From the UHGV virus genome UHGV-0323647: a DNA stretch of 21,157 bases; one strand, 5' to 3'. The notes under the pieces were generated by a model that was not told the origin of the DNA, made no database searches, and was given only the letters and a program-made list of their open reading frames with translations. Shown piece by piece: positions 1,239-19,475 of this stretch. Every line of letters starts with the position of its first letter. Within the stretch, counting starts at the first letter, position 1. This DNA comes from a virus. The translations under genes and the position numbers were made by a program.

Positions 1239-1261
1239 AATAACGATTAAGTGAGATGAAT

Positions 1262-1684
1262 ATGGCGACTGAACCAAAAGCTGGTCGCCCCTCTGATTAT
1301 ATGCCGGAGGTGGCTGACGATATCTGCTCGTTGCTTTCTTCTGGCGAAAGTTTGCTGAAAGTATGTAAGCGTCCTGGTATGCCGGATAAGTCCACTGTTT
1401 TCCGCTGGTTGGCAAAGCATGAGGATTTTCGCGACAAGTACGCGAAGGCAACTGAGGCACGAGCTGATTCTATTTTCGAAGAGATATTCGAAATTGCTGA
1501 CACTGCGATTCCAGATGCTGCTGAGGTGGCAAAGGCAAGACTTCGCGTTGATACCCGCAAATGGGCGCTGGCCCGAATGAATCCCCGTAAGTATGGCGAC
1601 AAGGTAACTAACGAGCTTGTCGGTAAGGACGGCGGCGCAATTCAGATTGAAACATCACCGATGAGCACTCTATTCGGAAAATGA
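1262..1684 (+). CDS. terS: terminase small subunit (Sf6 gp1-like TerS)
   Basis: Product MATEPKAGRPSDYMPEVADDICSLL... matches my recollection of the Sf6-type small terminase (about 140 aa). Two in-frame ATGs at 1256 and 1262; I chose 1262. Stop overlaps the terL start (ATGA at 1681-1684). Confidence 0.85.
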   Translation: MATEPKAGRPSDYMPEVADDICSLLSSGESLLKVCKRPGMPDKSTVFRWLAKHEDFRDKYAKATEARADSIFEEIFEIADTAIPDAAEVAKARLRVDTRKWALARMNPRKYGDKVTNELVGKDGGAIQIETSPMSTLFGK

Positions 1685-3096: not shown

Positions 3097-3097
3097 T

Positions 3098-5296
3098 ATG
3101 GCAGAAAAAAAGATGACTGACTGGCATCGCAAGGTGCTGTGCAACTTTGATAATGCCTGGTCAGCAACGCAGGATATGCGTGAGCAGATTATTGAGGCTC
3201 AACGTTTCGTCAGGGTGTCCGGCGCACAGTGGGAAGGCAGCACAAACGCTGGTTACTCATTTGATGAAGGCAGGTTTGAGCATTATCCGCGTTTTGAACT
3301 GAATAAGATTGCCCGTGAATGTGATCGCATCATTGGCGAGTATCGACAGAATCGCATCAGCGTTAAATTCAGGCCGAAGGACGATAAGGCATCGGAAGCG
3401 TTAGCCGAAAAGATGAACGGCAAATTCCGCGCTGACTATCAGGAAACATCCGGTGGCGAAGCGTGTGATAACGCATTTGATGATGCTGTAACGGGCGGAT
3501 TCGGTTGTTTCCGCATGTGTGCCGATTACGAAGATGAAATGGATCCGAGTAACGAGCAGCGCCGCATCAGCCTTCTTCCTGTTTACGACCCAGCAACATG
3601 CGTCTTCTTCGATCAGGACAGCAAGCAATATGACCGCTCTGATGCTATGTGGGCTATGGAAATGTTCTCCATGACGCCCAAAGCGTTCGAGGCTGAATAC
3701 CCTGATTCCACCGCGGCAAGCCTTTCTCGTGATGACACTGGCACTCAATATGACTGGTCAACGCCCGATGCCATCTATGTTGGACGCTACTACGAAGTTC
3801 GCATAGAGAAGGTGAAGCTCACGGCGTGGCGCAACCCTGTTAGCGGAGAAACGGCAATCTATGATGAAGAGCAAATCAAAGATATTGTCGACGAGCTAAC
3901 CGATGGCTCATTCGAACTGATTGGCGAGCGAACGGTGAAGAAACGCCGAGTTTATTGCGGTCTTCTGTCTGGCGCTGAATGGCTGGAAGAACCGAAGCGT
4001 ATTCCGGGTGAACATATTCCTCTCATCCCGGTATATGGGCGTCGCTCATTTGTTGATAATCAGGAGCGAATCGAAGGCCACGCAGCAAAAGCGATGGATG
4101 CACAGCGTCTTGAGAACCTGATGGTTTCCATGATTGCAGATAACGCTACTCAGGCTGGCGGTGATGGCATTCCTATCGTGGATGTTGATTTCATTCCCGG
4201 TCCATTAATGAATCACTGGGCAGAGAGGAATAAGAAAAGACCTGCAGTTCTTCCCATGACCAGCAAGAAGGACAAAAACGGAACGGTCATTTCAGAGGCT
4301 CAGGTTGCTGGCTGGACACCTCCGACACAAATGCCACCTGCTCTTGCCGGGCTATTGCAGTACACCGGAACGGCTATTCAGCAAATTACAGGTGCGTCGC
4401 AGCTTGAGAACATGCCGAGCAACGTCGCTACCGATACCGTTGATAGCATCTTTAACCGGATGGATACGCAGTCCTATATCTACATGGACAACATGGCTAA
4501 ATCCATGCGTCGCGCTGGCGTTGTGTGGCTTTCTATGGCGCGTGAGGTCTATGGCAGTGATACGCCGATGCGTATCGTTAATGAGGACGGCAGCGATGAC
4601 GTGGCGCTGATGACTGGTGAAGTGGTTGACCGTCAGACAGGGCAGGTTATCGCGCTTAACGACCTTTCGCAGGGCAACTATGAAGTGACTGTCGATGTCG
4701 GTCAGTCGTTCGCTACTCGCCGTGATGCAACTGTTAAGTCGTTACTTTCCATGCTGGCACTTATCCCACCGGGAACGCCGAAGCACGACCTTGTATCGTC
4801 GATGATTCTTGACAATATGGACGGCGAAGGGATGGACGACCTTAAAGAATACAACCGCAATCAGTTGCTTCTGTCTGGAGTTATCAAACCGAGAACGCCA
4901 GAAGAGCAGCAGATGGTTGAGCAGGCGAAACAACAACAGGCCAGTCAGCCAGATCCGGCTATGGTTGCTGCGCAAGGTCAGCTTCTTGCTGGTCAGGCTG
5001 AATTGCAGAAAGCGCAGAACGAGCAGGCAGCCATTCAGGTTAAAGCATTCCAGGCACAGACTGATGCTCAGGTTGCAGCGGCAAACGTTGTGAAAATCCT
5101 CGCATCTGCTGATAGCCAGCAAAAATCTGATATCCGTGAGGCGCTGAAACTGCTCGGACAGTTCCAGCAACAGCAAGGAGATAATGCCCGTGCTGATGCA
5201 GAGCTTGTCCTGAAAAGTCAGGCACAGGGCCATGCGCAGCGCATGGACATCAGCAGCATCCTGCAAAAATCAACTCAGCAACAACCACAGCAGTAA
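3098..5296 (+). CDS. portal protein (P22 gp1-like)
   Basis: 732 aa ORF starting 2 nt after the terL stop. Size matches P22-type portals (about 725 aa). Long Gln/Ala-rich helical C-terminal extension as in the P22 portal barrel. Confidence 0.92.
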   Translation: MAEKKMTDWHRKVLCNFDNAWSATQDMREQIIEAQRFVRVSGAQWEGSTNAGYSFDEGRFEHYPRFELNKIARECDRIIGEYRQNRISVKFRPKDDKASEALAEKMNGKFRADYQETSGGEACDNAFDDAVTGGFGCFRMCADYEDEMDPSNEQRRISLLPVYDPATCVFFDQDSKQYDRSDAMWAMEMFSMTPKAFEAEYPDSTAASLSRDDTGTQYDWSTPDAIYVGRYYEVRIEKVKLTAWRNPVSGETAIYDEEQIKDIVDELTDGSFELIGERTVKKRRVYCGLLSGAEWLEEPKRIPGEHIPLIPVYGRRSFVDNQERIEGHAAKAMDAQRLENLMVSMIADNATQAGGDGIPIVDVDFIPGPLMNHWAERNKKRPAVLPMTSKKDKNGTVISEAQVAGWTPPTQMPPALAGLLQYTGTAIQQITGASQLENMPSNVATDTVDSIFNRMDTQSYIYMDNMAKSMRRAGVVWLSMAREVYGSDTPMRIVNEDGSDDVALMTGEVVDRQTGQVIALNDLSQGNYEVTVDVGQSFATRRDATVKSLLSMLALIPPGTPKHDLVSSMILDNMDGEGMDDLKEYNRNQLLLSGVIKPRTPEEQQMVEQAKQQQASQPDPAMVAAQGQLLAGQAELQKAQNEQAAIQVKAFQAQTDAQVAAANVVKILASADSQQKSDIREALKLLGQFQQQQGDNARADAELVLKSQAQGHAQRMDISSILQKSTQQQPQQ

Positions 5297-5386
5297 TTAA
5301 CCCATAACGTGCAATGGCTGTCTTTATGAGGCCTGGCACCCTATTGCCTTCCGATGGGCTGAACATCGAGTAAACAGGGGTAACAA

Positions 5387-6280
5387 ATGGACCAGATGGC
5401 AGAAAACACACCAGAAGTTGAAATCGAAACCGACGCGTCAGAGCAGATTCCTGATGATGTCGAACTGGCTGAAGAAGTCGAAACAGAAGATGGCAGTGAG
5501 TCCTCTGGCAATGATGCAGAGGAAGCTACTGAAACTGATGACGACGAATCAGAACAGGAATTCTACTTTGGTGACGAAAAGCTGGATTCGCCAACCAGCG
5601 AAGATAGCGCAGAGCATGGACTGGTAAAACACCTGCGCAAGACGATTAAAGAGAAAGACCGTGAGCTGAAAGAGCTGATGCGTCAGTCTCAGAAACCCGT
5701 CGAGCAGCAGCCGGTAATCACTCAACCACCGCGAATGCCAAAACTGGATGATGAGGACATCGGTTTCGATGAAGAAATCTACCAGCAACGCATGGCTAAG
5801 TGGGCAGAGGATAACGGCAAGTACCAGCAACAGGAGATGGCTCGCAAGCAGAAGGAGCAGGAGCTTCAGGCTGCCTATCAAGAGCGATTATCCAAATATC
5901 AGCAACGTGTTAAGGCTCTCAAAGTTCCTGGCTATCAGGAAGCTGAGCAGGCCGTACTCGAGGAAATCCCCATCGAGACACAAAACGCGATCCTGTTTGA
6001 GTCAGAGAAGCCGGAAATCGTTGTTCTGGCGCTCGGTCGCAACGCTGAACTGCGCAAGCAACTGGCAGAAGCTACCAACCCCGTAGCAATTGGTCGTCTG
6101 CTGGAACGTATCGAATCGAAGGCCAGAATCATGCCAAAAGCAAAAACCACGGCAGCCACAACCCCGACAGTTAAGGGGAGCAACGGCGCAGTAATCAACA
6201 ACCTCGACAAACTGAAAGCCAAGGCGCTGGAAACTGGTGACTGGACGCCGTATTTCGCCGCTAAAAAGGCAAAAAAATAA
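5387..6280 (+). CDS. scaffolding protein (P22 gp8-like)
   Basis: 297 aa, highly acidic N-terminus (many D/E), charged helical middle, basic C-terminal tail (...FAAKKAKK). Sits between portal and coat. Confidence 0.85.
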   Translation: MDQMAENTPEVEIETDASEQIPDDVELAEEVETEDGSESSGNDAEEATETDDDESEQEFYFGDEKLDSPTSEDSAEHGLVKHLRKTIKEKDRELKELMRQSQKPVEQQPVITQPPRMPKLDDEDIGFDEEIYQQRMAKWAEDNGKYQQQEMARKQKEQELQAAYQERLSKYQQRVKALKVPGYQEAEQAVLEEIPIETQNAILFESEKPEIVVLALGRNAELRKQLAEATNPVAIGRLLERIESKARIMPKAKTTAATTPTVKGSNGAVINNLDKLKAKALETGDWTPYFAAKKAKK

Positions 6281-6298
6281 CCTATCGGAGCATTAAGC

Positions 6299-7552
6299 AT
6301 GGCTAACCAATTAGCAAAAGACCTTGAAATCATGTTCGAAAACTACGTTGAAGGCTTTGAGGCCGCCTGCGTAGTTTCCCGTAACGCTAAAAAATTCCGT
6401 CCCGGTGATACTGCAATGCAGCGAGCAGGTGATGTTCTGTATCGTCCGCAGCATTACCACATGAACATTGAAGAAGGCCTCGATCTCAGCAGCAAAACAC
6501 CAACAGCACTGGTTCAGCGCCTTGTTCCTTCTGTGTTCAAGGAGCCGAAAAACATTCTGTACACTCTGGATGCGCGTGAAATGCGTGACCCTGAACATAA
6601 AACTGAAGCTGGTCGCGCCGCAGGTATGCGCCTTGCTGCACAGATTGACTCTGACCTGATTTCCATGGTTACGCAGCGTGCTACTAACGTGATCACGATG
6701 GCTGACTCAACCACAGGTTCACAGGGCCGTGATTTGTGGAACTGTGCGGCAGGTATTGATGCCACTATGACGGCGATTGGTGTACCGCAGGGTATCAACC
6801 GTCGCTCTTTCTGGAACCCCTTCAACTACAAAGACCTTGCTGGCGAGCTTGGTCACCGTGCCTATGCTCAGGGTGCAACCCTGACAGCATACGAAAAAGC
6901 GCAAATCCCTCCGGTTGCGTCCTTCGATAGCTACAAGACCGATATTTCTGGTCGTGTTCCGAAGGGTACAGCAACTTCCATTGCGCTGGCAGCAGCACCT
7001 GCGCACAAGGTTGAAGCGAAAGATGCTAACGATATGCCAGTGGATAACCGACAGGGGACCATTACGGTATCTGCTGAAGGTTTGCAGGTTGGTGATGCGT
7101 TCACCATCGCAGGGGTGAATTCCGTACACCAGATCACCAAAGATACCACCGGGCAGCCGCAGGTATTCCGCGTTCTGGCAGTAAGCGGAACGACAGTAAC
7201 TATCTCCCCGAAAATTCTGCCGCCTGACAACGCGGATGTCGCCAGCCGACCATATGCAAACGTTGATGCTAACGCGGCAAATAGCGCAGCAATCACCATT
7301 CTCAACAAGAACGCAGCACCTGCTAACCTGTTCTGGGCTGATGGTTCTGTTGAGCTGATGTACGGCAAACTGGCGTTCCCGACTGGTCAGGGTCCACAGG
7401 TAATGACAGCAACCACCGAGCAGGGCGCTACGCTGATCATGTCTTACGCCTTCGACCACATCAAAGGCGTAACCACTGCTCGTTTCACCACTCTGTATGG
7501 TTGCTCTGTACTTGTTCCTGAATATACGGGCATCGTTATTGCCGGGCAGTAA
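6299..7552 (+). CDS. major capsid (coat) protein (P22 gp5-like, HK97 fold)
   Basis: 417 aa ORF with GGAG 10 nt upstream of ATG 6299. Position after scaffold and size close to P22/Sf6 coat (about 420-430 aa). Followed by an intrinsic terminator. Confidence 0.9.
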   Translation: MANQLAKDLEIMFENYVEGFEAACVVSRNAKKFRPGDTAMQRAGDVLYRPQHYHMNIEEGLDLSSKTPTALVQRLVPSVFKEPKNILYTLDAREMRDPEHKTEAGRAAGMRLAAQIDSDLISMVTQRATNVITMADSTTGSQGRDLWNCAAGIDATMTAIGVPQGINRRSFWNPFNYKDLAGELGHRAYAQGATLTAYEKAQIPPVASFDSYKTDISGRVPKGTATSIALAAAPAHKVEAKDANDMPVDNRQGTITVSAEGLQVGDAFTIAGVNSVHQITKDTTGQPQVFRVLAVSGTTVTISPKILPPDNADVASRPYANVDANAANSAAITILNKNAAPANLFWADGSVELMYGKLAFPTGQGPQVMTATTEQGATLIMSYAFDHIKGVTTARFTTLYGCSVLVPEYTGIVIAGQ

Positions 7553-7557
7553 TTTTG

Positions 7558-7582
7558 GTGGGGCTTCGGCCCCATTTTTATT
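7558..7582 (+). terminator. rho-independent terminator/attenuator just after the coat gene
   Basis: GGGGC-TTCG-GCCCC hairpin (7560-7573) followed by ATTTTTATT, 8 nt after the coat stop codon. Confidence 0.6.
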
Positions 7583-7593
7583 GGGAGAAGACA

Positions 7594-7782
7594 ATGGCAC
7601 GAACAATGCTCTATAAGCCTGGCAACATGATCACCTGTGGTCAGTTTGCTGTCGATTACATCATTGTTGATGACGAAGAAGTTAAATCTCACCTGAAAAA
7701 AGGTTGGGTAAAAACTCCTGAAGAAACCGCAACGAAGCAAAAAGTGGCTAAGGCGGAAGAAGATGGCGAAAACGAAGGGTGA
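7594..7782 (+). CDS. small hypothetical virion-module protein (62 aa)
   Basis: ATG at 7594 preceded by GGGAGAAG. The ORF-track start at 7555 (no ATG there; first in-frame ATG is 7594) lies inside the terminator hairpin and is unlikely. Acidic C-terminus. Overlaps the next gene by 20 nt. Confidence 0.5.
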   Translation: MARTMLYKPGNMITCGQFAVDYIIVDDEEVKSHLKKGWVKTPEETATKQKVAKAEEDGENEG

Positions 7783-8224
7783 TCTCGTTCTAAAGGCTTT
7801 ACGAAAAGCCGGGCTGTATTCCAATGCCACGTTGACAGATGCTGACCCTCAGGCAATTGAAGATGCTATTAATGACCTCGAAGACATGATGGCAGCATGG
7901 CAGGCGAAAGGTATCGAGCTTGGGTATCAGTTTGCTGATACAGAAAACGGCATCATGCCGTTACCTGACGATGATTCAGGTATCCCTGCATGGGCAAATG
8001 ATGGCGTCGCTTTGAAACTCGCTGTGCAAGTGTGCATGGATAACGTCATTCAGCCATCAGACGCTCTCCTTACCGCTGCTGACAGTGCATATCAAACAAT
8101 CTGTATCGCTTTAACCAAAATACCACCACTTGAGCGGCGAAATGACATGCCTCGCGGTAGTGGTAACAAAAGCGCGTTTACGTGGAATCGGTTTTACATC
8201 GAGAAAGATGATCCGAGTACGTGA
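7763..8224 (+). CDS. head-completion / tail-adaptor protein (P22 gp4-like)
   Basis: 153 aa. N-terminus AKTKGDLVLKALRKAG...TLTD...DLEDMMAAW and C-terminal ...MPRGSGN... resemble P22 gp4 as I recall it. Correct position after coat. Confidence 0.85.
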   Translation: MAKTKGDLVLKALRKAGLYSNATLTDADPQAIEDAINDLEDMMAAWQAKGIELGYQFADTENGIMPLPDDDSGIPAWANDGVALKLAVQVCMDNVIQPSDALLTAADSAYQTICIALTKIPPLERRNDMPRGSGNKSAFTWNRFYIEKDDPST

Positions 8225-8233
8225 GGTGAATAA

Positions 8234-9652
8234 ATGCCGATTCAGCAACTTCCGCTTATGAAAGGCGTCGGCAAAGACTTTCGAAACGCCGACTATATCG
8301 ACTATCTGCCAGTGAATATGTTGGCTACACCAAAAGAAATCCTTAACAGCAGCGGATATCTTCGCTCATTCCCGGGCATTGCCAAACGTTCTGATGTGAA
8401 CGGCGTATCGCGCGGCGTCGAGTACAACATGGCGCAGAGTGCTGTTTATCGCGTGTGTGGTGGGAAGCTCTACAAAGGCGAAAGTGAAGTCGGTGATGTT
8501 GCCGGAAGTGGTCGCGTATCAATGGCGCATGGTCGGACATCTCAGGCTGTAGGCGTTAATGGTCAACTGGTCGAGTATCGCTATGATGGCACGGTTAAAA
8601 CCGTCTCAAACTGGCCTACTGATAGCGGATTCACTCAGTATGAGTTAGGTTCAGTCCGCGACATTACACGCTTACGTGGGCGTTATGCGTGGTCAAAAGA
8701 CGGCACGGATTCATGGTTTATCACTGACCTTGAAGACGAATCGCATCCTGACCGTTACAGCGCACAATATCGCGCAGAATCGCAGCCGGACGGTATCCTC
8801 GGCATCGGAACATGGCGAGACTTCATCGTCTGCTTTGGTTCATCGACGATTGAATATTTTTCCCTGACTGGGGCAACCACCGTTGGTGCCGCTTTGTATG
8901 TCGCACAGCCATCTCTTATGGTGCAGAAAGGCATTGCCGGAACTTACTGCAAAACGCCGTTTGCTGATTCCTATGCGTTTATCAGCAATCCGGCAACAGG
9001 TGCTCCGTCTGTATACATCATCGGCTCCGGTCAGGTATCACCAATCGCCAGCGCGAGCATTGAGAAAATTCTCCGCTCCTACACTGCTGATGAACTGGCT
9101 GATGGCGTGATGGAATCGCTGCGATTTGATGCGCATGAGCTGCTGATTATCCATCTTCCGCGCCATGTTCTCGTGTACGACGCATCTTCAAGCGCCAATG
9201 GTCCGCAATGGTGTGTACTGAAAACAGGCTTGTATGACGATGTGTACCGCGCTATCGACTTCATTTACGAAGGAAATCAGATAACGTGCGGCGATAAGCT
9301 GGAATCGGTGACCGGGAAATTGCAGTTCGATATCAGCAGTCAGTACGACAAGCAGCAGGAACACCTGCTGTTTACTCCGTTGTTCAAAGCGGATAACGCC
9401 AGAGTGTTTGACCTTGAAGTTGAATCTTCAACTGGCGTTGCGCAGTACGCTGACCGCCTGTTCCTCTCTGCAACCACTGACGGCATCAATTACGGTCGTG
9501 AGCAGATGATTGAGCATAATGAACCGTTCGTTTACGACAAACGCGTTTTGTGGAAGCGTGTCGGGCGAATCAGGAAAAATGTTGGCTTCAAATTGCGCGT
9601 TATCACGAAGTCACCTGTCACTCTGTCTGGCTGTCAGATAAGGATTGAGTAA
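8234..9652 (+). CDS. head-completion / tail-hub protein (P22 gp10-like)
   Basis: 472 aa, the same length as P22 gp10. N-terminus [35 protein letters not shown] matches my recollection of gp10. GAGGTG upstream of the ATG. Confidence 0.9.
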
Positions 9653-10500
9653 TGGCGGATTCGAATCTCAATGTGCCGGTAATCATCCAAGCTACGCGGC
9701 TCGATACATCAGTTCTTCCACGCAATATCTTCTCGCAGTCATATCTGCTGTACGTTATCGCACAGGGTACTGATGTTGGTAACGTGGCGAACAAGGCCAA
9801 CGAGGCCGGACAGGGCGCTTATGATGCACAAGCCAGGAACGATGAGCAGGATGTGATTCTGGTCGATCACGAAATTCGACTGGCATCGGCTGAAGCGAAG
9901 ATTCAGGACCACGAAACAAGGATCACTAACGCAGAAGCGGCGATAGTCGGCCTTGATTCACGATTAACGACAGCAGAAAACGATATTGATTACCTGACTG
10001 ATGAAGTTGTCGCCATTCAAAACACGCTTTCCGACCATGAAACGCGCATCGATGCTCTGGAGTATGCCACTACTCGCAAGAAGTCAGAGGTTGTTTACTC
10101 TGGTGTATCTGTAACCATCCCGACAACGCCGACCAACCTTGTTAGCCTGCTGAAAACGCTCACGCCGTCATCCGGCTCGTTGACACCATTCTTCGACACC
10201 GTTAACAACAAGATGGTTGTGTTCAACGAGAACAAAACGCTGTTCTTCAAGCTGTCTATTGTCGGGGCGTGGCCCAGCGGAACCGCCAACAGGTCAATGC
10301 AGCTAACCTTTTCCGGCTCTGTTCCTGACACGTTGGTCAGCAGTCGTAATGCGGCGACAACAACCGACAACATCCTGTTAGCTACGTTCTTCAGCGTGGA
10401 TAAAGACGGCTTTCTTGCCACAAATGGCAGTACGTTAACCATTCAGTCGAATGGTGCGGCTTTTACTGCCACAACCATCAAGATAATCGCGGAGCAGTGA
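9652..10500 (+). CDS. tail needle / cell-envelope-penetrating protein (P22 gp26-like, with C-terminal knob as in Sf6-type needles)
   Basis: 282 aa. N-terminus [43 protein letters not shown] matches the gp26 hub-binding tip. Heptad-like coiled coil with repeated DHETRI. Start overlaps the gp10 stop (TAATG). Confidence 0.85.
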
Positions 10501-10955
10501 TGATTCAGTTCAAACCAACGCGAAACATCGACCTGATAGAAGCCGTGGGAAATCACCCAGACATTATCGCCGGGAGCAACAACGGTGATGGATACGACTA
10601 CAAACCTGATTGCCGTTACTTTGAGGTGAACGTGCACGGGCAGTTCGGCGGCATTGTTTACTATCAGGAGATTCAGCCGCTGACATTCGATTGCCACGCC
10701 ATGTACCTGCCAGAGATTCGCGGCTTCAGCAAGGAAATCGGGCTGGCGTTCTGGAGATACATTCTGACTAACACCACCGTTCAGTGCGTCACATCGTTCG
10801 CTGCACGCAAATTCCGCCACGGGCAGATTTACTGCGCAATGATTGGCCTTAAGCGTGTAGGAACCATCAAGAAATACTTCAAAGGCGTGGATGACGTGAC
10901 GTTTTACAGCGCCACACGCGAAGAACTAATCGACTTCCTGAATCACGGGAGATAG
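10500..10955 (+). CDS. gp14-like virion/ejection-associated protein
   Basis: ATG at 10500 overlapping the gp26 stop (TGATG), with GGAG 5 nt upstream. The ORF-track start at 10497 is a GTG. Position corresponds to P22 gene 14. Confidence 0.75.
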   Translation: MIQFKPTRNIDLIEAVGNHPDIIAGSNNGDGYDYKPDCRYFEVNVHGQFGGIVYYQEIQPLTFDCHAMYLPEIRGFSKEIGLAFWRYILTNTTVQCVTSFAARKFRHGQIYCAMIGLKRVGTIKKYFKGVDDVTFYSATREELIDFLNHGR

Positions 10956-10957
10956 CC

Positions 10958-11650
10958 ATGTTATATGCATTTAAACTGGGCAGAAAACTGCGCGGTGAGG
11001 AACCTTATTGCCCTGAAAAAGGCGGGAAAGGTGGCAGTTCTGATAAAAGCGCAAAGTATGCAGCAGAAGCTCAGAAGTATGCCGCAGACCTGCAAAATCA
11101 GCAGTGGCAGACGATCATGAAAAACCTTGCTCCGTTCACGCCTCTTGCGGAGCAGTATGTTAACCAGCTTCAGAACCTTTCCAGTCTAGAAGGTCAGGGG
11201 CAGGCACTTAATCAGTATTACAACTCTCAGCAGTATAAAGACCTTGCAGGTCAGGCTCGTTACCAGAGTCTTGCTGCTGCGGAGGCGACGGGTGGACTTG
11301 GTTCGACAGCCACAAGCAATCAACTGGCTACGATCGCGCCGACACTAGGTCAGTCTTGGTTATCAAATCAGATGAGCAATTACAACAATCTGGCAAACGT
11401 TGGGCTTGGTGCGCTGCAAGGTCAGGCAAACGCCGGGCAGACGTACGCCAACAACATGAGCAGCATTGCACAGCAAAGCGCAGCTCTTGCCGCTGCTAAT
11501 GCCAATAAACCATCAAGTCTTCAGACTGCAATTAGCGGTGGCACGTCTGGTGCGATTGCCGGTGCAGGTCTTGCCAGCCTTTTGGGAACATCAACACCTT
11601 GGGGCGCTGGAATTGGTGCTGGTATCGGATTGCTTGGCTCGTTGTTTTAA
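10958..11650 (+). CDS. ejection (internal virion) protein, gp7-like
   Basis: 230 aa. N-terminus MLYAFKLGRKLRGEEPYCPEKGGKGGSSDKSAKYAAEAQKY and Gly/Ala-rich hydrophobic C-terminus (...GAGIGAGIGLLGSLF) match P22 gp7 as I recall it. Confidence 0.75.
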   Translation: MLYAFKLGRKLRGEEPYCPEKGGKGGSSDKSAKYAAEAQKYAADLQNQQWQTIMKNLAPFTPLAEQYVNQLQNLSSLEGQGQALNQYYNSQQYKDLAGQARYQSLAAAEATGGLGSTATSNQLATIAPTLGQSWLSNQMSNYNNLANVGLGALQGQANAGQTYANNMSSIAQQSAALAAANANKPSSLQTAISGGTSGAIAGAGLASLLGTSTPWGAGIGAGIGLLGSLF

Positions 11651-11659
11651 GGGGTAATC

Positions 11660-12967
11660 ATGGCTACTTGGCAAGGAACAAACGGCGGATTGTTGGCTGG
11701 TATCGGCGGCGTCAACTCAAACGCTCCGAGCGTAAATGACATCGGCAATACGCTTCAGCTTATCAGGCAGAACAATGATATTGAGCGTTCAGGCGCTAAC
11801 AATGTTGGGCTGACTGCTTTGCAAGGTCTTCAGCAGGAAAAGCAGGCTCAGCGGCAGAAAGAATTTCAGCAGGCGTACGCTAATGCTTATGCGTCTGGTG
11901 ATCGCGGTGCTTTGCGTCAGTTGGCTACTCAATATCCAGACCAGATTGAATCCGTTCGTAAAGGCATGGGATTCATTGATGAAGATCAGCGTAATTCTAT
12001 CGGCACCTTAGCGGCTGGCGCACGCCTTGCGTCATCGTCTCCAGAAGCAATGCAATCATGGCTGCAAAACAACGCCAAGGAACTGACTCGCGTCGGTGTT
12101 GACCCTAATAACGTTGCTCAGATGTATCAGCAGAATCCTTCAGGATTTGGTGAGTTTGTTGATCACCTTGGAATGGCTGCGCTTGGTCCGATTGATTACT
12201 TCAATGTTCAGGATAAGATGGCAGATCGCCAGCTGACCATGCGCGGTCAGGATCTGAACTCGCAAACCGCCGCCCGGAATCAGGCAATCACAATGCGTGG
12301 GCAAGATATCCAGGCAAATTTAGGTCAGCAGCGCATTAATCTGGACGCAGAAACAAACCGCATTAACTACGAAAATAAGCGCCTTGACCGGATGCTATCA
12401 GCAGAAACTAACGACCTGAAGCGCCAGGAAATACAGAGCCGCATAGCAGCCAACAACCAGAAGTTGCAGCAGAAGCAGCAAGAGCTAAATGATGGCTACA
12501 AAGACGGCATCAACACTCTCACAACCAGCATGTTCACTCTGAACGATATCGTTAATTCTCCTGCACTTAAGAGCATTACAGGCTTACGTGGAGCAATCCC
12601 CAACGTTCCAGGCTCACAAGCTGCAGACACTCAGGCGCGACTTGATACCTTTAAATCCCAAGCATACCTGACAGCGGTTCAGGCCATGAAAGGACTTGGT
12701 GCACTTTCTGATGCCGAGGGCAAAAAGCTCGACCAGGCTGTTGGTTCGCTGCAGAACTCGCAGAGCGAGGAGTCCTTTCGTCGCAACGCTGGCGTCATCC
12801 TGAACACGCTCAACCAGAAGCGTAATGAGGCGGTTGGTAAGTACGTTCAGCAAAACGGTATCAAGCGAGTGGAAGCGCCTCAGGCTTCTATAGATTACCT
12901 GAAGCAGCACCCCGAGCTGTCAATCGACTTCATTAATCGCTACGGATATCTTCCATCTTTGGGGTAG
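11660..12967 (+). CDS. ejection (internal virion) protein, gp20-like
   Basis: 435 aa, Gln/Asn-rich low-complexity helical protein, second of three consecutive ejection-protein genes. GGGG upstream of the ATG. Confidence 0.7.
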   Translation: MATWQGTNGGLLAGIGGVNSNAPSVNDIGNTLQLIRQNNDIERSGANNVGLTALQGLQQEKQAQRQKEFQQAYANAYASGDRGALRQLATQYPDQIESVRKGMGFIDEDQRNSIGTLAAGARLASSSPEAMQSWLQNNAKELTRVGVDPNNVAQMYQQNPSGFGEFVDHLGMAALGPIDYFNVQDKMADRQLTMRGQDLNSQTAARNQAITMRGQDIQANLGQQRINLDAETNRINYENKRLDRMLSAETNDLKRQEIQSRIAANNQKLQQKQQELNDGYKDGINTLTTSMFTLNDIVNSPALKSITGLRGAIPNVPGSQAADTQARLDTFKSQAYLTAVQAMKGLGALSDAEGKKLDQAVGSLQNSQSEESFRRNAGVILNTLNQKRNEAVGKYVQQNGIKRVEAPQASIDYLKQHPELSIDFINRYGYLPSLG

Positions 12968-12970
12968 TAA

Positions 12971-15601
12971 ATGGCTAATTACCGTGATTTGTTAGAGCAG
13001 GCTGGCGCACGTTACGGTGTGCCAGAAGGGTTGATGACTGCACTGGGTGCCAAGGAGTCTTCTTACAACCCTGCAGCAGTAAGCTCCTCCGGGGCTGTAG
13101 GATTGACTCAGGTCATGCCTGGGACATGGCGTGATATGGGTTATACCGATGAGCAAATGCAAAACCCCGAATATCAGGCTGACGCTGGCGCGCGCTATCT
13201 GGCAAAGATGTACCAGCAGTTTGGTAACTGGCGTGACGCTCTTCAGGCTTATCACGACGGTCCCGGCAACGTTATGAAGGCAAAGCGTGGTGAATATACG
13301 CCAGGACCTGAAGGCCGCGGTTACGTTGATGATCGCTTTGCTCAATGGGCGGGTGACCCGGTGACAGACTCAACAGTCGAACAGCGCGCCACCTCTGCAA
13401 AGGTACATCCTCAGCAAGACCCTAACAACCCGTTTGCACAACTGGAAGTACAGTCATCCGAACAAGTATCGGCATCAGGTGTGCAGTCAGACCCAAATAA
13501 TCCATTTGCTCAGATTGAGCAGCAGGCAGCCAGTCAGCAGCCACCTCAACCCGTAAGTTCTGTCGCACCGAAACCTGTTCAGCAACAAACAGTTAATCAG
13601 GCCAATAATGAACCAGCACGTGAAGAACCATCATTGATGCAACAAGCTGGCGATTGGCTCACAGGTGGTCAAAGTGCAGGGCAAATTGCAGAGCAGGCTG
13701 GTCGTGGTCTGGTAAACATACCATTTGACGTATTGCAGGGTGGCGCAAGTCTGATTAATGCAATCAGCCAGGGGCTTGGTGGCCCCAAGGTTTTGGATGA
13801 TGTTTATCGTCCAGTAGATCGACCGACAGACCCCTACGCGCAAGCCGGTGAAACAATTGGCGGGTATCTCCTGCCAATTGGTACAGCGGCAAAAGCTGCT
13901 GGAGCGCCAGCAAAGCTCGCTGGAGATATCGGTTCCGCAGGAAACATGATTGCAGGTTCTCTTGCTGATGCTGCAAATCAGGAGGGCGACTTTGCACAAA
14001 ATGCTGCCATTAACGGTGGTATCAATATTGGTGCTCAAGGCGTTCTTTCAGGTGTCGGGCGCGTTATTGCGCCAAGGGTTTCACATGCTCTTGGTGGTGC
14101 AGCACTGAATTCTGCTAATGATGTTTCCAGGATGGCAAAGTCAGGTGCTGGGCGTCAGTCAATTGCCAGTCAGGCCGCTAATGTGTCCGAAGGTGTAGCA
14201 AAAGCGGCTGAGTCTGCTGGAATTGATATAAACGCATTAACACCAGGAATGCGATCTGGAAGTCGTGGAATTGCACAAGCCGAAGGCGCATTGGCATCAA
14301 CACCAGGAATTGTTCAGGACGCCCATCAGACAGCATTTAACGAAATATCATCAAAGTTAAGTCGAAACCTTGATGAATTTGGGGCCGCATCTGGAACGGC
14401 ATCAGAAAAAAGTGCGGCTATAAAACAAAGGATTCTTCAAAATCTTGATCAGATGAAGGATGCCGAGCGCGCGGCATGGGATGACGTGCGGTCAACAATG
14501 CCAAATCAAAAAGCAAGAATGCTAAATGGTAATGCCGTTATTCAGGCAGAGCGATCTGCTGGCATACCGCTTACTCCTGAAATGAAACAGTTTGTTCAGG
14601 CAAACAATCAAGGTGGAGTAACATTTGATGGCATGAAAGCATGGAGAGCGAAATTTGCTGATGCGGAGCAAAAATATAAGCGTAGCGGAGAGGCAAATGC
14701 GGCAAGGAGAGCAGGGGAAATACGCCGGGCAATTACTGATGATATGCGCACAATGGCGGAAAACGGCGGATTTCTTGATGACTGGCAGAAAGCTAATGAT
14801 CTGTCTAAAGCGAGGTTATCAGCACAAGAGAGTGCAGAGTCTGTTTTCGGGCGTGATTTGGCAACAGATGCACTGATTACGAATGGAGTAAAATCCCTTC
14901 AATCATCGTCAGCTAAAGGTCTTAATGGTCCTGCTGGGTTCCATTCTATGATCCGCGCGCTGCCAGAATCAGAGCGTGTTCCTGCTATATCATCAATGTT
15001 GCAAGATGCTATCTCGCATGGTGTACGTGGTGGCAAAGCTGATGCAGCAGGAATTAACCATATCGCAGGGATACTTACCCCACAAAATGTAAAAGCCATT
15101 AGCAGATATTCCTCAGATCTCGGAAGAATTGCTGATGCATATGGCACTCTTGCAAGAGCAGCAGTGAAACCTCAGCAGTATATTGAAAGAACAGGGAGAA
15201 CTGCCAATGTACTACGCGATCTGGATGCTGGTTTATCCAACGTCACATCAACAGTGTTAAATGCAATTGCCAACTCAACATCAGGTGCCATTGTTGGTGG
15301 AGCAGGAGGGGGCATTGCAGGCGCTGCCGCAGGTGCTTTAGTTGGCGCCGGGTTAAAAGGTGCTGTATCTAAAATTGCCACCACACGTAGTGGTCGGTAT
15401 GCGATAGAGAAAGCAGTTCAGGAAGCAACTAAAGCAGTAAGAGCAGGCGGAAGTAAAGAAGCATTAGCGGCGGCGGAACGCAGATTTATGGCAAATAAAG
15501 CTGCCGTAAAAGCGATACGTGATACAGTCGGAAACGAAGAGTTCAATCGCTTAGCGAGGGCTGGCATTGTAGCGTCGCTAAGCGGAATAGCACAGGAGTA
15601 A
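12971..15601 (+). CDS. ejection (internal virion) protein, gp16-position, with N-terminal lytic-transglycosylase (SLT)-like domain
   Basis: 876 aa. The N-terminal roughly 110 aa carry SLT-family motifs (GAKESSYNP with candidate catalytic Glu, [18 protein letters not shown]). The remainder is Ala/Gly/Gln-rich with a hydrophobic Gly-rich segment ([22 protein letters not shown]). Confidence 0.8.
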
Positions 15602-15925
15602 TTAATCATCCATGGATGGATTGAGCTTATCTCGTGTTGATGTGGCGATTTGTCCTACATTTCTAAGCCAAGATTTCAAATCCTTGATATTGTCATTGAT
15701 TTCATGAATATCTTCTTTTTTTAATCTTTTAACATTATTTTCAATAATTTCAATGGATTGCTCAATATCAGATATAGTGAATGATAGTTTGTTCTTCTCA
15801 TCTTTTATTGAGTTTTTAAGTGCTTCGTTCTCAGTCTTGAGGTCAGATATCTTTTGTTTTAAAGATGCCAGTTGGTACTGAACCACAATGAGTGCGATAG
15901 CTATCACGATAACTGTTGTATACAC
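15602..15925 (-). CDS. small membrane-anchored coiled-coil protein (107 aa), unknown function; candidate exclusion/abortive-infection factor
   Basis: GTG start at 15925 preceded on the - strand by AAGGAGG (complement of 15931-15937) with a 5-nt spacer. N-terminal hydrophobic helix YTTVIVIAIALIVVQY, then a K/E-rich helical region. AT-rich. Stop codon directly abuts the gp16-like stop (convergent, zero spacer). Confidence 0.65.
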   Translation of the reverse strand: MYTTVIVIAIALIVVQYQLASLKQKISDLKTENEALKNSIKDEKNKLSFTISDIEQSIEIIENNVKRLKKEDIHEINDNIKDLKSWLRNVGQIATSTRDKLNPSMDD

Positions 15926-16216
15926 ACCAACCTCCTTAGTTTTGTGCAGGATACCAGATGATAATGTATTGGTGGAGTGGTGTGTGAAAACGTGTCAACG
16001 ACAAACCATCCACAACTTGGACGAATGATTTAGCAAAAAGTGCTATTTTTGGTGTTTAGTGTCATAGAAAAGTGAATAGCTCACTTTTCAACATTGCATG
16101 AAACTTGCAGGAAATGTGACATTACCTTATAGGTAACTTCGGCGAAAATGCAGTAAATGTGAAACGTAATGATTTAAACGTGTCGAGAAAGTGGTTGTAA
16201 GTTAGCCTCTGAAGGA

Positions 16217-16245
16217 TTGATGACAGCTTTGTTATGGTATTAAAT
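16217..16245 (+). promoter_or_regulatory. candidate sigma70 promoter for the Panacea-like operon (TTGATG, 15 bp spacer, extended -10 TGgTATTAA)
   Basis: TTGATG at 16217-16222 and TG-n-TATTAA at 16235-16243, in a 368-bp AT-rich divergent intergenic region. Identified by eye only; a perfect TTGACA at 16251-16256 lacks a good -10. Confidence 0.3.
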
Positions 16246-16299
16246 GCAACTTGACACAGTTGTATACATAGCTGCGGCTATCAAGATGGAGGTATGTTT

Positions 16300-16743
16300 A
16301 TGCTCACTTGTTTTGATGTCGCCGACTACTTCTTGGCGCATTGCGATGAAGAAAGTGGCGACATTATCTCTAACCTAAAAATTCAGAAGTTGACGTATTA
16401 TGCCCAAGGGTTTTCTCTGGTTCTTCTGGGTAAGCCGCTATTTAATGAGAAAATTGAAGCCTGGATGCATGGGCCAGTAGTTCCTGAATTGTATCGTAAA
16501 TATAGGGACTGTGGTAACGGAGCTTTACCTGCGCCAGAAAACTTTGACGCTAAAAAATTCAGTGAAGATGAAATTGAATTGCTGGATGAGGTGTATAAAG
16601 TTTATGGTCAGTTTTCTGCCTGGAAACTGCGCAATATGACTCACGAAGAGCAGCCATGGAAAGATGCTTACATTGAGGGTGCGGTTAGCCAAGAAATCAC
16701 ACTTGATTCTATGAAAGGTTTTTTCAAAACGTTAATTAACTGA
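16300..16743 (+). CDS. Panacea-domain (DUF4065, SocA/GepA-like) protein; putative antitoxin/immunity component
   Basis: Segment NLKIQKLTYYAQGFSLVLLGKPLFNEKIEAWMHGPVVPELYRKY matches the conserved core I associate with DUF4065/Panacea proteins. GGAGG at 16288-16292 sits 7 nt before ATG 16300; the ORF-track ATG 16294 is only 1 nt after the SD. Confidence 0.7.
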   Translation: MLTCFDVADYFLAHCDEESGDIISNLKIQKLTYYAQGFSLVLLGKPLFNEKIEAWMHGPVVPELYRKYRDCGNGALPAPENFDAKKFSEDEIELLDEVYKVYGQFSAWKLRNMTHEEQPWKDAYIEGAVSQEITLDSMKGFFKTLIN

Positions 16744-16748
16744 CGTGT

Positions 16749-17171
16749 ATGTCTAGAGTTAAGGGAAGAATAAAACAGAGGGATAAAGAGAGCTCTGCTA
16801 CTGTTGGCCTCTCTATCCATCACGAATCTCATGATGTAGACAAAAGTCCGCCTGTATTTTCTCTTAGATACCTACAAAAGGGGTATTGCCTAGATTGCTG
16901 CCAAAAGCATGAAAAGGCAGCATTTGCAGATAGGCTGTTCAGGTTAAGTCAGATGTCATGGGATGAGATACGAAAATCTGATAAACACGGGCTTGGGACG
17001 GAAAAAATTGCCAGAAACGCGATAAAGGCTCCGATTCCTAAGCATGTTACTCAAGATGTGGATTTCATTGCGTTCAGATTTTGCTCTAAGGCACCTATGG
17101 TTGGTTATAAGATAGGAGCCACTTTTTATGTCTTATGGCTCGACAGGGAGTTCAAGCTATACAAGCACTAA
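16749..17171 (+). CDS. hypothetical protein (140 aa) co-operonic with the Panacea-like gene; candidate toxin/effector partner
   Basis: ATG 5 nt after the upstream stop with no SD of its own, suggesting translational coupling. No recognised domain. Basic N-terminus, CLDCC cysteine cluster, C-terminal strand ...GATFYVLWLDREFKLYKH. Followed immediately by an intrinsic terminator. Confidence 0.6.
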   Translation: MSRVKGRIKQRDKESSATVGLSIHHESHDVDKSPPVFSLRYLQKGYCLDCCQKHEKAAFADRLFRLSQMSWDEIRKSDKHGLGTEKIARNAIKAPIPKHVTQDVDFIAFRFCSKAPMVGYKIGATFYVLWLDREFKLYKH

Positions 17172-17172
17172 T

Positions 17173-17198
17173 AAAACCCACCGTCAGGTGGGTTTTTT
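17173..17198. terminator. intrinsic terminator (potentially bidirectional) ending the Panacea-like operon
   Basis: AAAACCCACC-GTCA-GGTGGGTTTTTT: GC-rich 6-bp stem, tetraloop, T6 tract; A-tract on the 5' side gives a U-run on the other strand too. Confidence 0.75.
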
Positions 17199-17211
17199 AT
17201 AAGGAGCAATC

Positions 17212-17331
17212 ATGATTTACCCATCAAACAACCCACCAGTTTGCCTGATTGGATGCCAGCCTTGCAGTTTTTATGGAATTAATTATGCCATGCTCAAGAG
17301 CCTTGTTAGCATCCAAAATGGTCGAGTCTGA
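17212..17331 (+). CDS. questionable small ORF (39 aa) with strong RBS; may be the 5' part of a frameshifted/decayed gene
   Basis: AAGGAG at 17201-17206, 5-nt spacer, ATG 17212. Product [39 protein letters not shown]. Overlaps long open frames on both strands that lack credible starts. Confidence 0.25.
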
Positions 17332-17614
17332 TATCAGGGATGCCCACCTAATATGGGTTCCGATGTCGATATTGAACGTCTCAACGAAGCGATCAAGATC
17401 GTTATCGAGGCATTTCCCGTACTCTCTCAATCTGGCATGGTCGGCGGCTGGGGAGGCAAAGCCCCATAATAGAGGATGTAACAGGAATCTTGATAATGGG
17501 TTTGCGAAACGTTCTGAGCCAGACGGACCAACGAATCTTTCCGCATGGATGAGACTTAAGAATAAAGAATTACCTCCTTCAGTTCATAACTACTGACAGA
17601 TAACCAACGCAACG

Positions 17615-17639
17615 ACCCAGCTTCGGCTGGGTTTTTTTA
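17615..17639 (+). terminator. strong rho-independent terminator upstream of the tailspike gene
   Basis: ACCCAGC-TTCG-GCTGGGT stem-loop followed by TTTTTTT; same architecture as the 17173-17198 terminator. Confidence 0.8.
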
Positions 17640-17696
17640 TGCCCAAAATTCACCGTAGCCATGCTGCGGCGATTCCTTGTATCTGGAGCAAATTAA

Positions 17697-19475
17697 ATGA
17701 CAGATTCAATAAATGCCAATGTTGTAGTTAGCATGCCTTCGCAACTCTTCACTATGGCGCGTTCTTTTAAAGCCGTAGCCAATGGCAAAATTTATATCGG
17801 TCAGGTTGACACTGACCCGGTAAATCCAGAAAACCAGATTCAGGTTTATGTGGAGAGCGAAGACGGTTCTCACGTTCCTGTTTCTCAACCAATCATCATT
17901 AACGCTGCTGGTTACCCTGTATATAACAGACAGATTGCCAAGTTCGTAACTGTACAGAATCACTCCATGGCTGTGTATGATGCGTATGGTGCACAACAAT
18001 TCTATTATCCTGATCTACTGAAATATTCTCCAGACCAGTTAAGGGCTGAGCTTTCTGGCCCTGATGGCGCATCTCTGGTTGGTTATGGAGATGAAACTGT
18101 CAAAGATGCTCTTGACAATAATGCCCATAAAATAGACACATTGAGGAGTGACTTGGCTGCTGATGATGGCTTTCGCCACATAGGCAACTTTCTCAATTTA
18201 GAGGCGCTGAGGGATTCAATGCCATTAGTTGCTGGAGAAATTGTTTATGTAGCTTCAGCAGCAAGTGCTACAGCAACTGAAAAACATTATGGTGGTGGGT
18301 ATTTCCAGTCTTTCGACAATAGCACATCACAGATTGCCGATGATGGAGGGATTGTTATTGTTCCATCAACTGGAACGTTGGCGTGGCGTCGCATTAATTT
18401 CACGGCCTACGATATGCAGTTTTGGGGGGTTAAGCCTGATGGTGCGACGGATAACGCGGAAGCCATTACGAAGGCGACGCAGTATGCAAAAGATAATCAT
18501 GTTGAACTTGTATTCCCTGCTGGTAATGTAAAGTCCTCACAAGCATTTCCTTTTTACTCCAGAATGTCAGTAAGGGGAGCCGGCAGAGAAAGCTCATTTT
18601 TCAGTAAAACAACAAATAACAAGTTTACCATTACATCAGAGGTGGAAGTAGACGCGCTCATTGTATTCATTCCTGATGTTTATGACCCAAGTGGCGTAAC
18701 TATTGATACATTTTGCTTTAAACCAAAACTTGAGGGCATTACTTTCCAGAGAGATGATTTGACTTCAGATAACATGTGTTACTACAGCGTGTGGGCAGAA
18801 AAATTAGCTGCTCCAATCATGAGGGATTTAAATTTTATAGGGCATTATATCGGAATGTATGGTAAAAACTGGTTTTTATTTGAGGCAACATCTGTTCAGT
18901 TTTTAGGAGTGAACGGTAGAACTTTCCAAGGCATAAGTTGCTTAAATTTGAGTGGGCCAACATACTTCCTTTCAGGAACAAGCCTTAACTGGAATCTTGT
19001 AAGTGTTGTAAACGCACAAAATGCCTACGAAATTTCAGGGCAGCAGTATAGTCATCTTAATAACTGTACAGCAGAAGGAATTAAACCAATGCCAGGAGAG
19101 ACACTTGCCACTGCATTCCGTTTTAAGAATCCTACATCAATAACTTTAACCTCATGCGGAACTGAAAATGTTCAGGGAGAACAATTCAGGATAGAGATGG
19201 CGCCCACACCATCATTTAAAGGTTCGGTTGTAATCAATAACTTTCAAGTTGTGGATCAGGTCAATCCATCCACGCCAACTAAATTTTTTGTTATTGATTC
19301 TGCTAATGTTGGTACATTATCCGTATCATTAATTGGTGGTGAATTAACAAGAAACACTACGCTATCAAACCTACAACAACCAACCGTATCAGGCACAAAC
19401 TGTGTGTTAAATAATGTTGGGTGCTGGGTTGAGTCACCTTCTGTTTCTGGAGGCGCTGTCTACAAGACGCTTTAG
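17697..19475 (+). CDS. tailspike protein: P22-type head-binding N-domain fused to a divergent beta-helix-like receptor-binding/depolymerase body
   Basis: 592 aa. N-terminal roughly 110 aa ([59 protein letters not shown]...) match the P22 gp9 head-binding domain as I recall it. Downstream the sequence turns AT-rich and carries motifs typical of pectate-lyase-like tailspikes ([23 protein letters not shown]). Confidence 0.9.

Follow-up and report, generated by a model that had tools for sequence, protein, structure and literature searches.

How are two divergently oriented accessory genes controlled from one short spacer? This question is raised by positions 15926-16299 of the virus genome UHGV-0323647, a stretch of 21,157 nucleotides that is referred to as a whole as the window. 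The window represents the late region of a phage or prophage of the P22-like type (Lederbergvirus), and the spacer lies between the ejection gene 16 and the tailspike gene, in the slot of the "ant moron". The flanking genes are divergent, with an hkcB-like gene running leftward and the gene of a Panacea protein, PanA, running rightward together with that of its partner, PanT. Because both genes point away from the spacer, each needs a promoter within it. An earlier note on this DNA described the region as non-coding and AT-rich, which agrees with our reading: the spacer is 374 nt long, its GC content is 38.2% compared with 50.1% for bases 1-15601, which hold the structural genes, and it contains only short open reading frames (ORFs). 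The note also named two TTGACA hexamers as divergent promoters, and a palindrome and short direct repeats as possible operators of an autoregulated toxin-antitoxin (TA) locus. When the sequence was read directly, all of these motifs were located at the coordinates that the note gives; the functions given to them are considered below.

The spacer probably serves to control accessory genes, or morons, that are inserted in the late operon of a P22-like prophage; it is composite and non-coding, and the two divergent morons are likely to be served by divergent promoters. It has a mosaic structure, and its central part belongs to a family of non-coding leaders that precede diverse cargo, in which neither a coding signal nor a consensus RNA fold is present.

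Family of Moron Leaders

The central ~220 nt of the spacer (16026-16246, plus strand) are a divergent member of this family of "moron leaders". The family was reached through the relatives of PanA in viral contigs, which include L164 and L143, located in the tail clusters of lambda-like phages. The non-coding sequence upstream of these two genes shares ordered blocks with the window, namely GCAAAAAGTGCTATT, ATTACC-N5-GGTAA-CTTC.GCGAAAA, and TTG.T.-N15-TATTAAAT. The pattern GTGCAAAAAGTGCTATT was found at 66 loci in viral contigs, and the full leader is present at 52 of them. The leader of L164 also occurs, unannotated, in coliphage HK639 and Salmonella phage SW-37 (CP051275.1).

A leader profile was built with nhmmer from 43 distinct leaders, excluding the window (model of 299 positions). 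Applied to the window, it gave a single significant match at 16033-16167, with an E-value of 1.1e-11 and 37 bits, covering the model positions 83-216 of 299. The profile matches 126 loci, once each. All P22-like copies are among them, and no unrelated control locus is. The window carries, in order, block B1 (16033-48), block B3 (16121-50), and TTGATG-N15-TATTAA (16217-43), followed by panA-panT; its leader is without the left block B0 (GGGGGCGAAATACTACAGCAAT), and its block B5 is degenerate. No leader was found at the PanA relatives L144, L145, and L165-L170. The lambda-type leader had no match in the E. coli genome collection or the plasmid collection, and the lambda-type copies are thus taken to come from other hosts.

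The insertion points differ, being the slot between genes 16 and 9 in the P22-like phages and the positions after K or after a lipoprotein gene in the lambda-like tail clusters. The lambda-type left end (GGTTAAAA.CTGAGCGCC ... GGGGGCGAAATACTACAGCAAT), which lies ~60-140 nt left of B1 (for example, L171 2490-2560 and L164 2150-2240), is absent from the window. Where the leader stands between K and I, this end contains the stop codon of the tail gene K; in HK639, the same end follows a lipoprotein gene. A short minus-strand ORF (...KDCCSIS...ALSF*) can be read in it.

The cargo behind the leader consists of at least six groups of two-gene, mostly TA-like modules. These are a small ORF with Fic/Doc, a 196-aa Panacea protein with a 150-aa partner, a ~200-aa protein with YafO, the PanA-PanT pair of the window type, and two gene pairs without a family match (72 aa + 280 aa in L176 and 113 aa + 241 aa in L194). 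The leader of HK639 precedes a 190-aa protein and a YafO toxin, and that of SW-37 precedes a Doc-like gene. In SW-37 (L172 3090-3444), the Doc/Fic gene is split into two overlapping ORFs by an apparent frameshift, and an intact 165-aa gene is found in L196. A ~300-nt leader is thus reused before unrelated TA-like cargo at several insertion sites, and no annotation or paper describing it was found. The leader subtypes, of hairpin type or repeat type, pair freely with several cargo types, which implies recombination inside the leader.

Probable Rightward Promoter and PanAT 5' Untranslated Region

Of the 43 leaders, 40 score for a sigma-70-like site at their 3' end, with the form TTGCTC/TTGCTT-N15/16-TATTAA/TATAAA/TATATT and often with an upstream TG. 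When leaders with differing cargo are compared, the homology stops directly after the -10 element. The corresponding probable promoter of the PanAT moron in the window (16217-16246, plus strand) comprises a -35 element TTGATG (16217-16222), a TG (16235-16236), and a -10 element TATTAA (16238-16243). An alternative -10 element is TAAATG (16241-16246), and the predicted start is at ~16249-16254. The position and the form of this site suggest, with fair though incomplete confidence, that TTGATG...TATTAA is the rightward promoter of panAT.

The plus-strand TTGACA (16251-16256) lies at or after this predicted transcription start and not at a -35 position. It is followed 17 nt downstream by the hexamer GCGGCT. 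L164 and L143 lack this TTGACA but retain the promoter and the 5' untranslated region (5'UTR). The minus-strand copy (15998-15993) is probably not a -35 element either: CCACCA stands 17 nt downstream of it, and the only plausible -10 element, CATTAT, is 26 nt away. A promoter scan found no -10 hexamer 16-18 nt from either TTGACA of the spacer. The hexamer is not enriched in the whole window, where 10 copies were observed versus 15.3 expected; the spacer holds 2 copies per 374 nt versus ~0.27 expected (P~0.03). The general idea of divergent promoters is likely to hold, as both genes need one, but the TTGACA hexamers are not those promoters.

Downstream of the promoter, the segment 16247-16299 is conserved among PanAT cassettes only, that is, in allele A of the window, allele B of Emek, L164, and L143. 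It includes the PanAT-specific 5'UTR (16264-16299, plus strand), which carries the inverted repeat ATAGC-TGCG-GCTAT (16268-16281) and the Shine-Dalgarno (SD) sequence GGAGGT (16288-16293). This inverted repeat, found in PanAT cassettes only, may be a cargo-specific operator. The start codon of PanA is probably the ATG at 16300, 6 nt past GGAGGT.

Conserved Blocks and Repeats in the Leader

Block B1 (GCAAAAAGTGCTATTT; 16031-16050, plus strand) forms in the window a perfect inverted repeat, TAGCA-AAAAG-TGCTA, followed by T5. It is an exact 20-nt match between the window and L164, in each of which it stands 205 nt from the -10 element. Block B3 (ATTACCTTATAGGTAACTTCGGCGAAAATG; 16121-16150, plus strand) contains the palindrome TTACC-N5-GGTAA (16122-16136) with the core ACCT-N3-AGGT, and is a candidate protein-binding site or hairpin. 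In the 26 distinct family sequences of B3, the stem is near-invariant and the loop is variable. The core reads ACCT-N3-AGGT in 8, ACCT-N3-GGGT in 14, and ACCC-N3-GGGT in 4 of them; the 7-bp helix is 90% paired, with an innermost pair that is UG (14), UA (8), or CG (4) and never unpaired. In one leader subtype (L186), B3 is replaced by another palindrome, TTCAAC-N5-GTTGAA, and other family members have a palindrome GTTCG-T-CGAAC near -67. Short blocks (TCGTCGAAC, ATCTT, and TTGCT) are near-invariant over the 43 distinct sequences with differing cargo, while their flanks vary.

Leftward sigma-70-like sites lie over the B3 palindrome in lambda-type leaders (TTACCC-N17-TATTGT, or an overlapping site 10 columns off; alignment columns 254-264). 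Of the 43 lambda-type leaders, 17 score at the first site and 25 at the second, and the window scores at neither.

From B1 to B3, the sequences of the subtypes are not homologous to each other: a 6-bp hairpin (ATAGGC-N3-GCCTAT) or four ~10-nt repeats stand there, and the window has instead the perfect 9-bp inverted repeat GAAAAGTGA-ATAGC-TCACTTTTC (16067-16089). The latter is the strongest local feature of the spacer, and the earlier note did not list it. It was reached by 1.2% of 500 dinucleotide shuffles of the spacer, on which all the repeat statistics are based, and it is invariant in all P22-like copies. In L174, L178, L189, L201, L206, L213, L224, and L232, the place of the hairpin, ~20-70 nt past B1, is taken by iteron-like repeats of ~10-11 nt (GCATTGGAAC and variants), four in tandem.

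The direct repeats that the note had called statistically weak are AAACGTGTC, at 15988 and 16176, and AAATGTGA, at 16112 and 16155. An exact 9-nt direct repeat was present in 30% of the shuffles and the best perfect hairpin stem averaged 5.6 bp, so that neither the 9-mer repeats nor the 5-bp palindrome, considered by itself, exceeds chance. This assessment stands for the 9-mers and does not extend to AAATGTGA, which sits in a 13/14 direct repeat, TGCAG[G/T]AAATGTGA (16106-16119 and 16149-16162, plus strand), that flanks B3 and was reached by 1.2% of the shuffles. The palindrome TTACC-TTATA-GGTAA, likewise at chance level by itself, is nevertheless among the most conserved blocks of the leader family. 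It lies ~85-130 bp upstream of the predicted -35 element and recurs before Doc, YafO, and other cargo, so it is not private to PanA. The listed repeats lie ~25-230 bp upstream of that element, and only the second copy of AAACGTGTC overlaps a family block, which is degenerate.

Several other assignments of these repeats were rejected. Neither copy of AAATGTGA, which equals the half-site of CRP, is accompanied by TCACA at a spacing of N6. The 9-bp inverted repeat, with GTGA-N5-TCAC, is one base short of a CRP site. The motif AAANGTG, noticed post hoc, occurs 7 times versus 0.6 expected; an unbiased 6-mer test was not above the shuffles, and the motif was not relied on. The hairpin pattern GAAAAGTGA-N5-TCACTTTTC occurs in 85 stretches of genome contigs, all from unrelated taxa (Clostridium, a Dysosmobacter metagenome-assembled genome (MAG), Bacillus, and others), and the leader profile matches none of the 85. 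It is found many times in single genomes, namely the Dysosmobacter MAG (L044, L049, L052, L053, L056, L057, and others) and Clostridium argentinense (L042, L055, L074, L109, and L114), which suggests a dispersed repeat family in these organisms that is unrelated to the phage leader.

Left Part of the Spacer

The left end of the spacer is a back-to-back joint of ribosome-binding sites (RBSs) that is typical of P22-like phages (15921-15956). It contains the leftward start codon, the SD sequence AAGGAGG (15937-15931, minus strand), and a vestigial rightward SD sequence of the hkcC type, AGGA (15948-15951). Positions 15921-15955 are 100% identical to the sequence upstream of sieA in P22 and 94% identical to that upstream of hkcB in HK620, although the genes differ on both sides. 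In P22 and HK620, the joint is the whole intergenic region between the leftward gene and hkcC. In the window, the leftward mRNA probably has this joint as its 5'UTR. The 31-36-nt joint is 94-100% conserved over P22, HK620, epsilon34, SEN22, and many other P22-like phages despite their differing neighbors, and it has the appearance of a linker or boundary sequence for recombination.

The adjoining segment, 15957-~16025, is common to P22-like phages only. It contains the best candidate for a promoter of the hkcB-like gene (15958-15988, minus strand), with a -35 element TTCACA (15988-15983), a spacing of N16, a -10 element CATTAT (15966-15961), and a predicted start at ~15954. The candidate matched 9/12 in a consensus scan, and its position corresponds to that of PsieA annotated in P22-pbi. 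In P22, 85 bp upstream of sieA are enough for function (Leavitt et al., PMC10461980). Phage 611R6 retains the CATTAT stretch and has a non-homologous TTACAA 17 nt upstream of it; in JEP4, CATTAT lies within 42 matched nucleotides. We consider the chances about evenly balanced that TTCACA-N16-CATTAT would serve as the promoter of the leftward gene.

The same stretch contains a 9-codon ORF (15958-15987, MIMYWWSGV), whose start lies 6 nt past the vestigial AGGA and whose codon 3 is changed to Leu in a few variants. This ORF is probably a relic of the start of a replaced hkcC gene.

Mosaicism among the P22-like Copies

Allele A of the window and allele B of Emek are 98.6% identical over 15957-16171, 86.7% over 16172-16299, and ~71% over panA, and the polymorphisms of the left part are unlinked to the PanAT allele. 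Because of this near-identity of the left part and the unlinked polymorphisms, the sequence comparison places a recombination boundary near 16172. Such a boundary explains the conservation of 15957-16171 better than purifying selection, which was rejected as its cause. A prophage of E. coli O139:H1 P15-25 (NZ_CP080233.1; L040 3001-3391) retains 15926-16153 beside a deletion. Past the window position 16153, part of a coding sequence for a coiled coil follows, which means that the PanAT cassette was deleted or replaced there.

Proposed Organization and Alternative Explanations

In the organization that we propose, the spacer would consist of four parts. The joint would supply the RBS of the leftward gene and probably its 5'UTR. 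It would be followed by a short, context-specific segment that holds the probable leftward promoter TTCACA-N16-CATTAT, and then by ~220 nt of the portable leader, ending in a sigma-70 promoter that would fire rightward into the cargo. The fourth part would be the PanAT-specific 5'UTR, with its small hairpin and strong SD sequence, and an intrinsic terminator would end the moron. B1, TTACC-N5-GGTAA, and, elsewhere, GTTCG-T-CGAAC may be the sites of a factor that is common to all cargo types and would be host-encoded rather than cargo-encoded. A regulatory role of these upstream blocks, as judged from the sequence, is conceivable, although we lean somewhat against it. The leader and a conserved terminator/RBS linker would also provide flanking homology for the swapping of cargo by recombination. 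The full proposal, in which the leader is a portable "chassis" for both regulation and recombination of the TA or defense morons of enterobacterial temperate phages, with a host factor binding the palindromes and B1, is tentative, and we regard it as rather doubtful.

Several observations weigh against this interpretation. Both promoters are predicted from sequence alone, and the position weight matrix scores in the window are moderate: the rightward site scores 6.2 within a range of 6.2-7.8, and 102 sites in the window score 7 or more. The invariance of B1 is partly a matter of ascertainment, as the search used B1 as its pattern. In P22-like copies, recombination and not constraint accounts for the near-identical left part. 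At the Doc-type loci, the leader identity of 0.82 equals in effect the third-codon identity of 0.84 of the adjacent doc gene, so the constraint is limited to the short blocks and most of the leader may be neutral. The B3 palindrome is degenerate in HK639, which has GGCAT for GGTAA. Second copies of all the palindromes were looked for in the complete genomes of HK639 and E212, including the immunity regions, and none was found; an operator of a phage-encoded repressor was rejected on this ground.

Some of these observations are equally what the main rival explanation predicts. According to this explanation, the spacer beyond two minimal promoters is neutral filler, and its conservation reflects the recent spread and recombination of a moron chassis. 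The similar divergence of the leader and the doc third codons, the invariant left part that was spread by recombination with polymorphisms unlinked to the allele, the E. coli prophage that retains the left part beside a deletion, and the degenerate palindrome of HK639 are all in its favor. Against it stand the short blocks that stay near-invariant over 43 distinct sequences with differing cargo while their flanks vary, a palindrome that is retained at the B3 position even when its sequence has changed, as in L186, and a distance of 205 nt from B1 to the -10 element that is kept in the window and L164 despite the divergent sequence between them. We regard neutral filler as a serious possibility that nonetheless falls well below an even chance.

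A divergent control region was also proposed by the earlier note, in which TTGACA hexamers define the divergent promoters, and the repeats and the palindrome are the operators of PanA-PanT in a classical type II TA repression. The divergent geometry of the genes agrees with this model, as does the PanAT-specific inverted repeat between the predicted -10 element and the SD sequence. Many type II antitoxins autoregulate, and a helix-turn-helix (HTH) is present in some PanA proteins, though only in some (PMC8832971). The PanA of the window, however, is a Panacea domain alone, and Panacea itself has been argued to be probably no transcriptional autoregulator (PMC10440598). Neither TTGACA has a -10 element at 16-18 nt, and the plus-strand copy is not kept in the PanAT relatives. 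The palindrome and part of the repeats lie within the leader that is common to Doc, YafO, and other cargo, and eight relatives of PanA have no leader at all. Because of the missing DNA-binding domain, the doubt in the literature, and the sharing of the motifs with unrelated cargo, autoregulation by PanA through these motifs is unsupported, and we consider the model as a whole improbable.

A structured RNA is improbable to a similar degree. Here, the core at ~16030-16170 would be a non-coding RNA or an RNA element of the late or moron transcript, with hairpins at 16031-45, 16067-89, and 16122-36. The three inverted repeats all have 5-nt spacers, the 9-bp one being rare in the shuffles, the folding z-scores are -2.1 for the plus strand and -2.4 for the minus strand, and the innermost pair of B3 is always UG, UA, or CG on the plus strand. 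This strand is transcribed in lytic growth, as late transcription must cross the region to reach the tailspike gene (PMC2629481). However, Rfam 15 gave no match with E<5 in 15926-16299 or in the family member L196. RNAalifold found no consensus structure for an alignment of 45 sequences on either strand (~-1.4 kcal/mol, helices of at most 3-4 bp). The covariation score of B3 was reached by 90 of 500 shuffles, and no pair was altered on both sides. In addition, the variable segment that bears the hairpin is replaced by non-homologous sequence in other subtypes, and no pair of promoter and terminator frames a discrete RNA. With Rfam negative, RNAalifold empty, and the pair counts of B3 within the shuffles, a structured RNA was rejected as the principal explanation.

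A small protein in the spacer, either the 9-codon ORF or a 25-aa minus-strand ORF (16013-15936), is very improbable: although ATG 15958 lies 6 nt past AGGA, which is the SD sequence of hkcC in P22 and HK620, and the three variable sites of this ORF encode Met or Leu, both ORFs are very short and without a family match, the 15958 ORF shows few substitutions and overlaps the leftward promoter candidate, and a hidden coding gene was rejected for the lack of 3-nt periodicity in the column entropy of the leader family.

If the reading of the leader as a chassis is true, unrelated toxic cargo would be placed under one control, for example, expression only in the lysogen or under a particular stress, and the leader and the linker would give homology for cargo swaps between phages and between insertion sites. 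If the blocks are regulatory, they would offer a handle on how a prophage controls potentially lethal toxin or defense cargo without the DNA binding of each antitoxin, and the exchange of cargo would also be explained. The leader can be used to find uncharacterized cargo pairs, since whatever lies downstream of it is a candidate TA or defense module. The locus also cautions that short repeats upstream of a TA operon are not to be read as cognate operators. The spacer alone is an ordinary moron control region, and the comparative result is the more useful one.

Comparison with Known Systems

Morons that bring their own promoter and terminator are a well-known feature of phages (Juhala/Hendrix definition; Cumby et al. 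2012, PMC3594210). In P22-like phages, the variable "ant moron" fills the interval from gene 16 to gene 9, the tailspike gene (Villafane et al. 2008, PMC2629481). The present locus resembles them in its accessory genes between gene 16 and the tailspike gene, its deviant GC content, its predicted upstream promoter region and downstream intrinsic terminator, and contents that vary between related phages. It differs in that the upstream sequence is a ~300-nt leader with conserved blocks instead of a minimal promoter, and in that this leader stands before at least six unrelated modules at different insertion points.

The sieA region of P22 shares the identical 31-36 nt, a leftward membrane-protein gene directly after gene 16, and a promoter candidate at the distance of PsieA. 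Here, however, the leftward gene is hkcB-like, and the sequence past the joint is unrelated to P22, where the coding sequence of hkcC begins. The slot of P22 contains sieA, hkcC, and immI. P22, HK620, epsilon34, 611R6, and JEP4 have gene 16, the joint, and the tailspike gene in common and differ otherwise in the contents of the slot. Unlike in P22, the genes mnt, arc, and ant of immI are missing here apart from a 3' remnant of ant, and no Arc or Mnt ORF was found within 15602-17697. The remnant of the ant 3' end, with its terminator (hairpin 17614-17633), spans 17514-17664; mnt, arc, and most of ant are deleted.

The locus is like the control regions of autoregulated type II TA systems in having a bicistronic antitoxin-toxin operon with a probable promoter upstream and with small inverted repeats close to the start, and unlike them in that the antitoxin is without a DNA-binding domain. 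Because the conserved upstream sites are shared with unrelated TA cargo, they cannot be cognate operators. The operator of MqsA is 5'-AACCT-N3-AGGTT-3', and functional MqsA sites may lie far upstream of the start, as in csgD, where the distance is 78 bp (PMC4894380). The window palindrome has the similar core ACCT-TAT-AGGT, but its flanks are TACCT...AGGTA, and most family members have ACCT-GAG-GGGT; the resemblance of the sequences may serve as a lead only.

Defense or TA cargo is exchanged between conserved flanking sequences in other temperate phages as well. The anti-phage hotspots of P2-like phages and P4-like satellites, as Rousset et al. reportedly described them in 2022, hold diverse defense and TA cargo between conserved flanks. 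Those flanks are said to be conserved phage genes at a fixed locus, whereas the flank here is a portable non-coding leader that moves with its cargo to different loci.

Genomic Setting

The late region of the window contains, in order, the genes of the terminase, portal, scaffold, coat, and ejection proteins, a tailspike with the P22 head-binding domain (Head_binding), and an O-antigen acyltransferase. The GC content is 32.4% in the hkcB-like gene and 41.6% in panAT, so that the accessory genes and the spacer together range over 32-42%, compared with 50% in the structural genes.

The hkcB-like gene (15602-15925, minus strand; 107 aa) has a GTG start at 15925, 5 nt past the strong SD sequence AAGGAGG, and matches phrog_5962 with an E-value of 5e-58. 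Its protein has an N-terminal transmembrane helix and a coiled coil. The gene occupies the position of sieA in P22 and is homologous to hkcB of HK620 and CUS-3 and to gene 14 of epsilon34 (PMC2629481).

PanA (16300-16743, plus strand; 147 aa) is a stand-alone Panacea-domain antitoxin that matches PF13274 (SocA_Panacea) at residues 28-121 with an E-value of 2.1e-24; in the Pfam search, no domain besides SocA_Panacea and no HTH were found. PanT (16749-17171, plus strand; 140 aa), the presumed toxin, matches phrog_8366 with an E-value of 1e-75 and, weakly, the C-terminal part of the NsnC model of PADLOC (E = 2e-7), and it has no Pfam match. It is co-conserved with PanA in L143, L144, L145, and L164. 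The moron is closed by a predicted intrinsic terminator, CCCACC-GTCA-GGTGGG followed by T6 (17176-17200, plus strand). This terminator is kept with the cassette in L164, and analogous terminators follow other cargo types.

In the stretch 17176-17235, the PanT terminator is followed by GGGTTTTTTATAAGGAGCAATCATG and then by a 39-aa ORF (17212-17331). The sequence GGGTTTTTTATAAGGAGCAATCATG resembles the terminator-plus-RBS linker GGGTTTTTTTATGGAG(T/C)AAATATG, which stands after other cargo in lambda-like phages, where the next tail gene follows. The segment 17201-17521 holds a 68-aa minus-strand ORF (17224-17430) without a family match. Other P22-like phages carry this segment with 95-99% identity. 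In the 54-kb PhiR12 phages, which are unrelated, the identity is 98.6% and the annotation reads "hypothetical protein".

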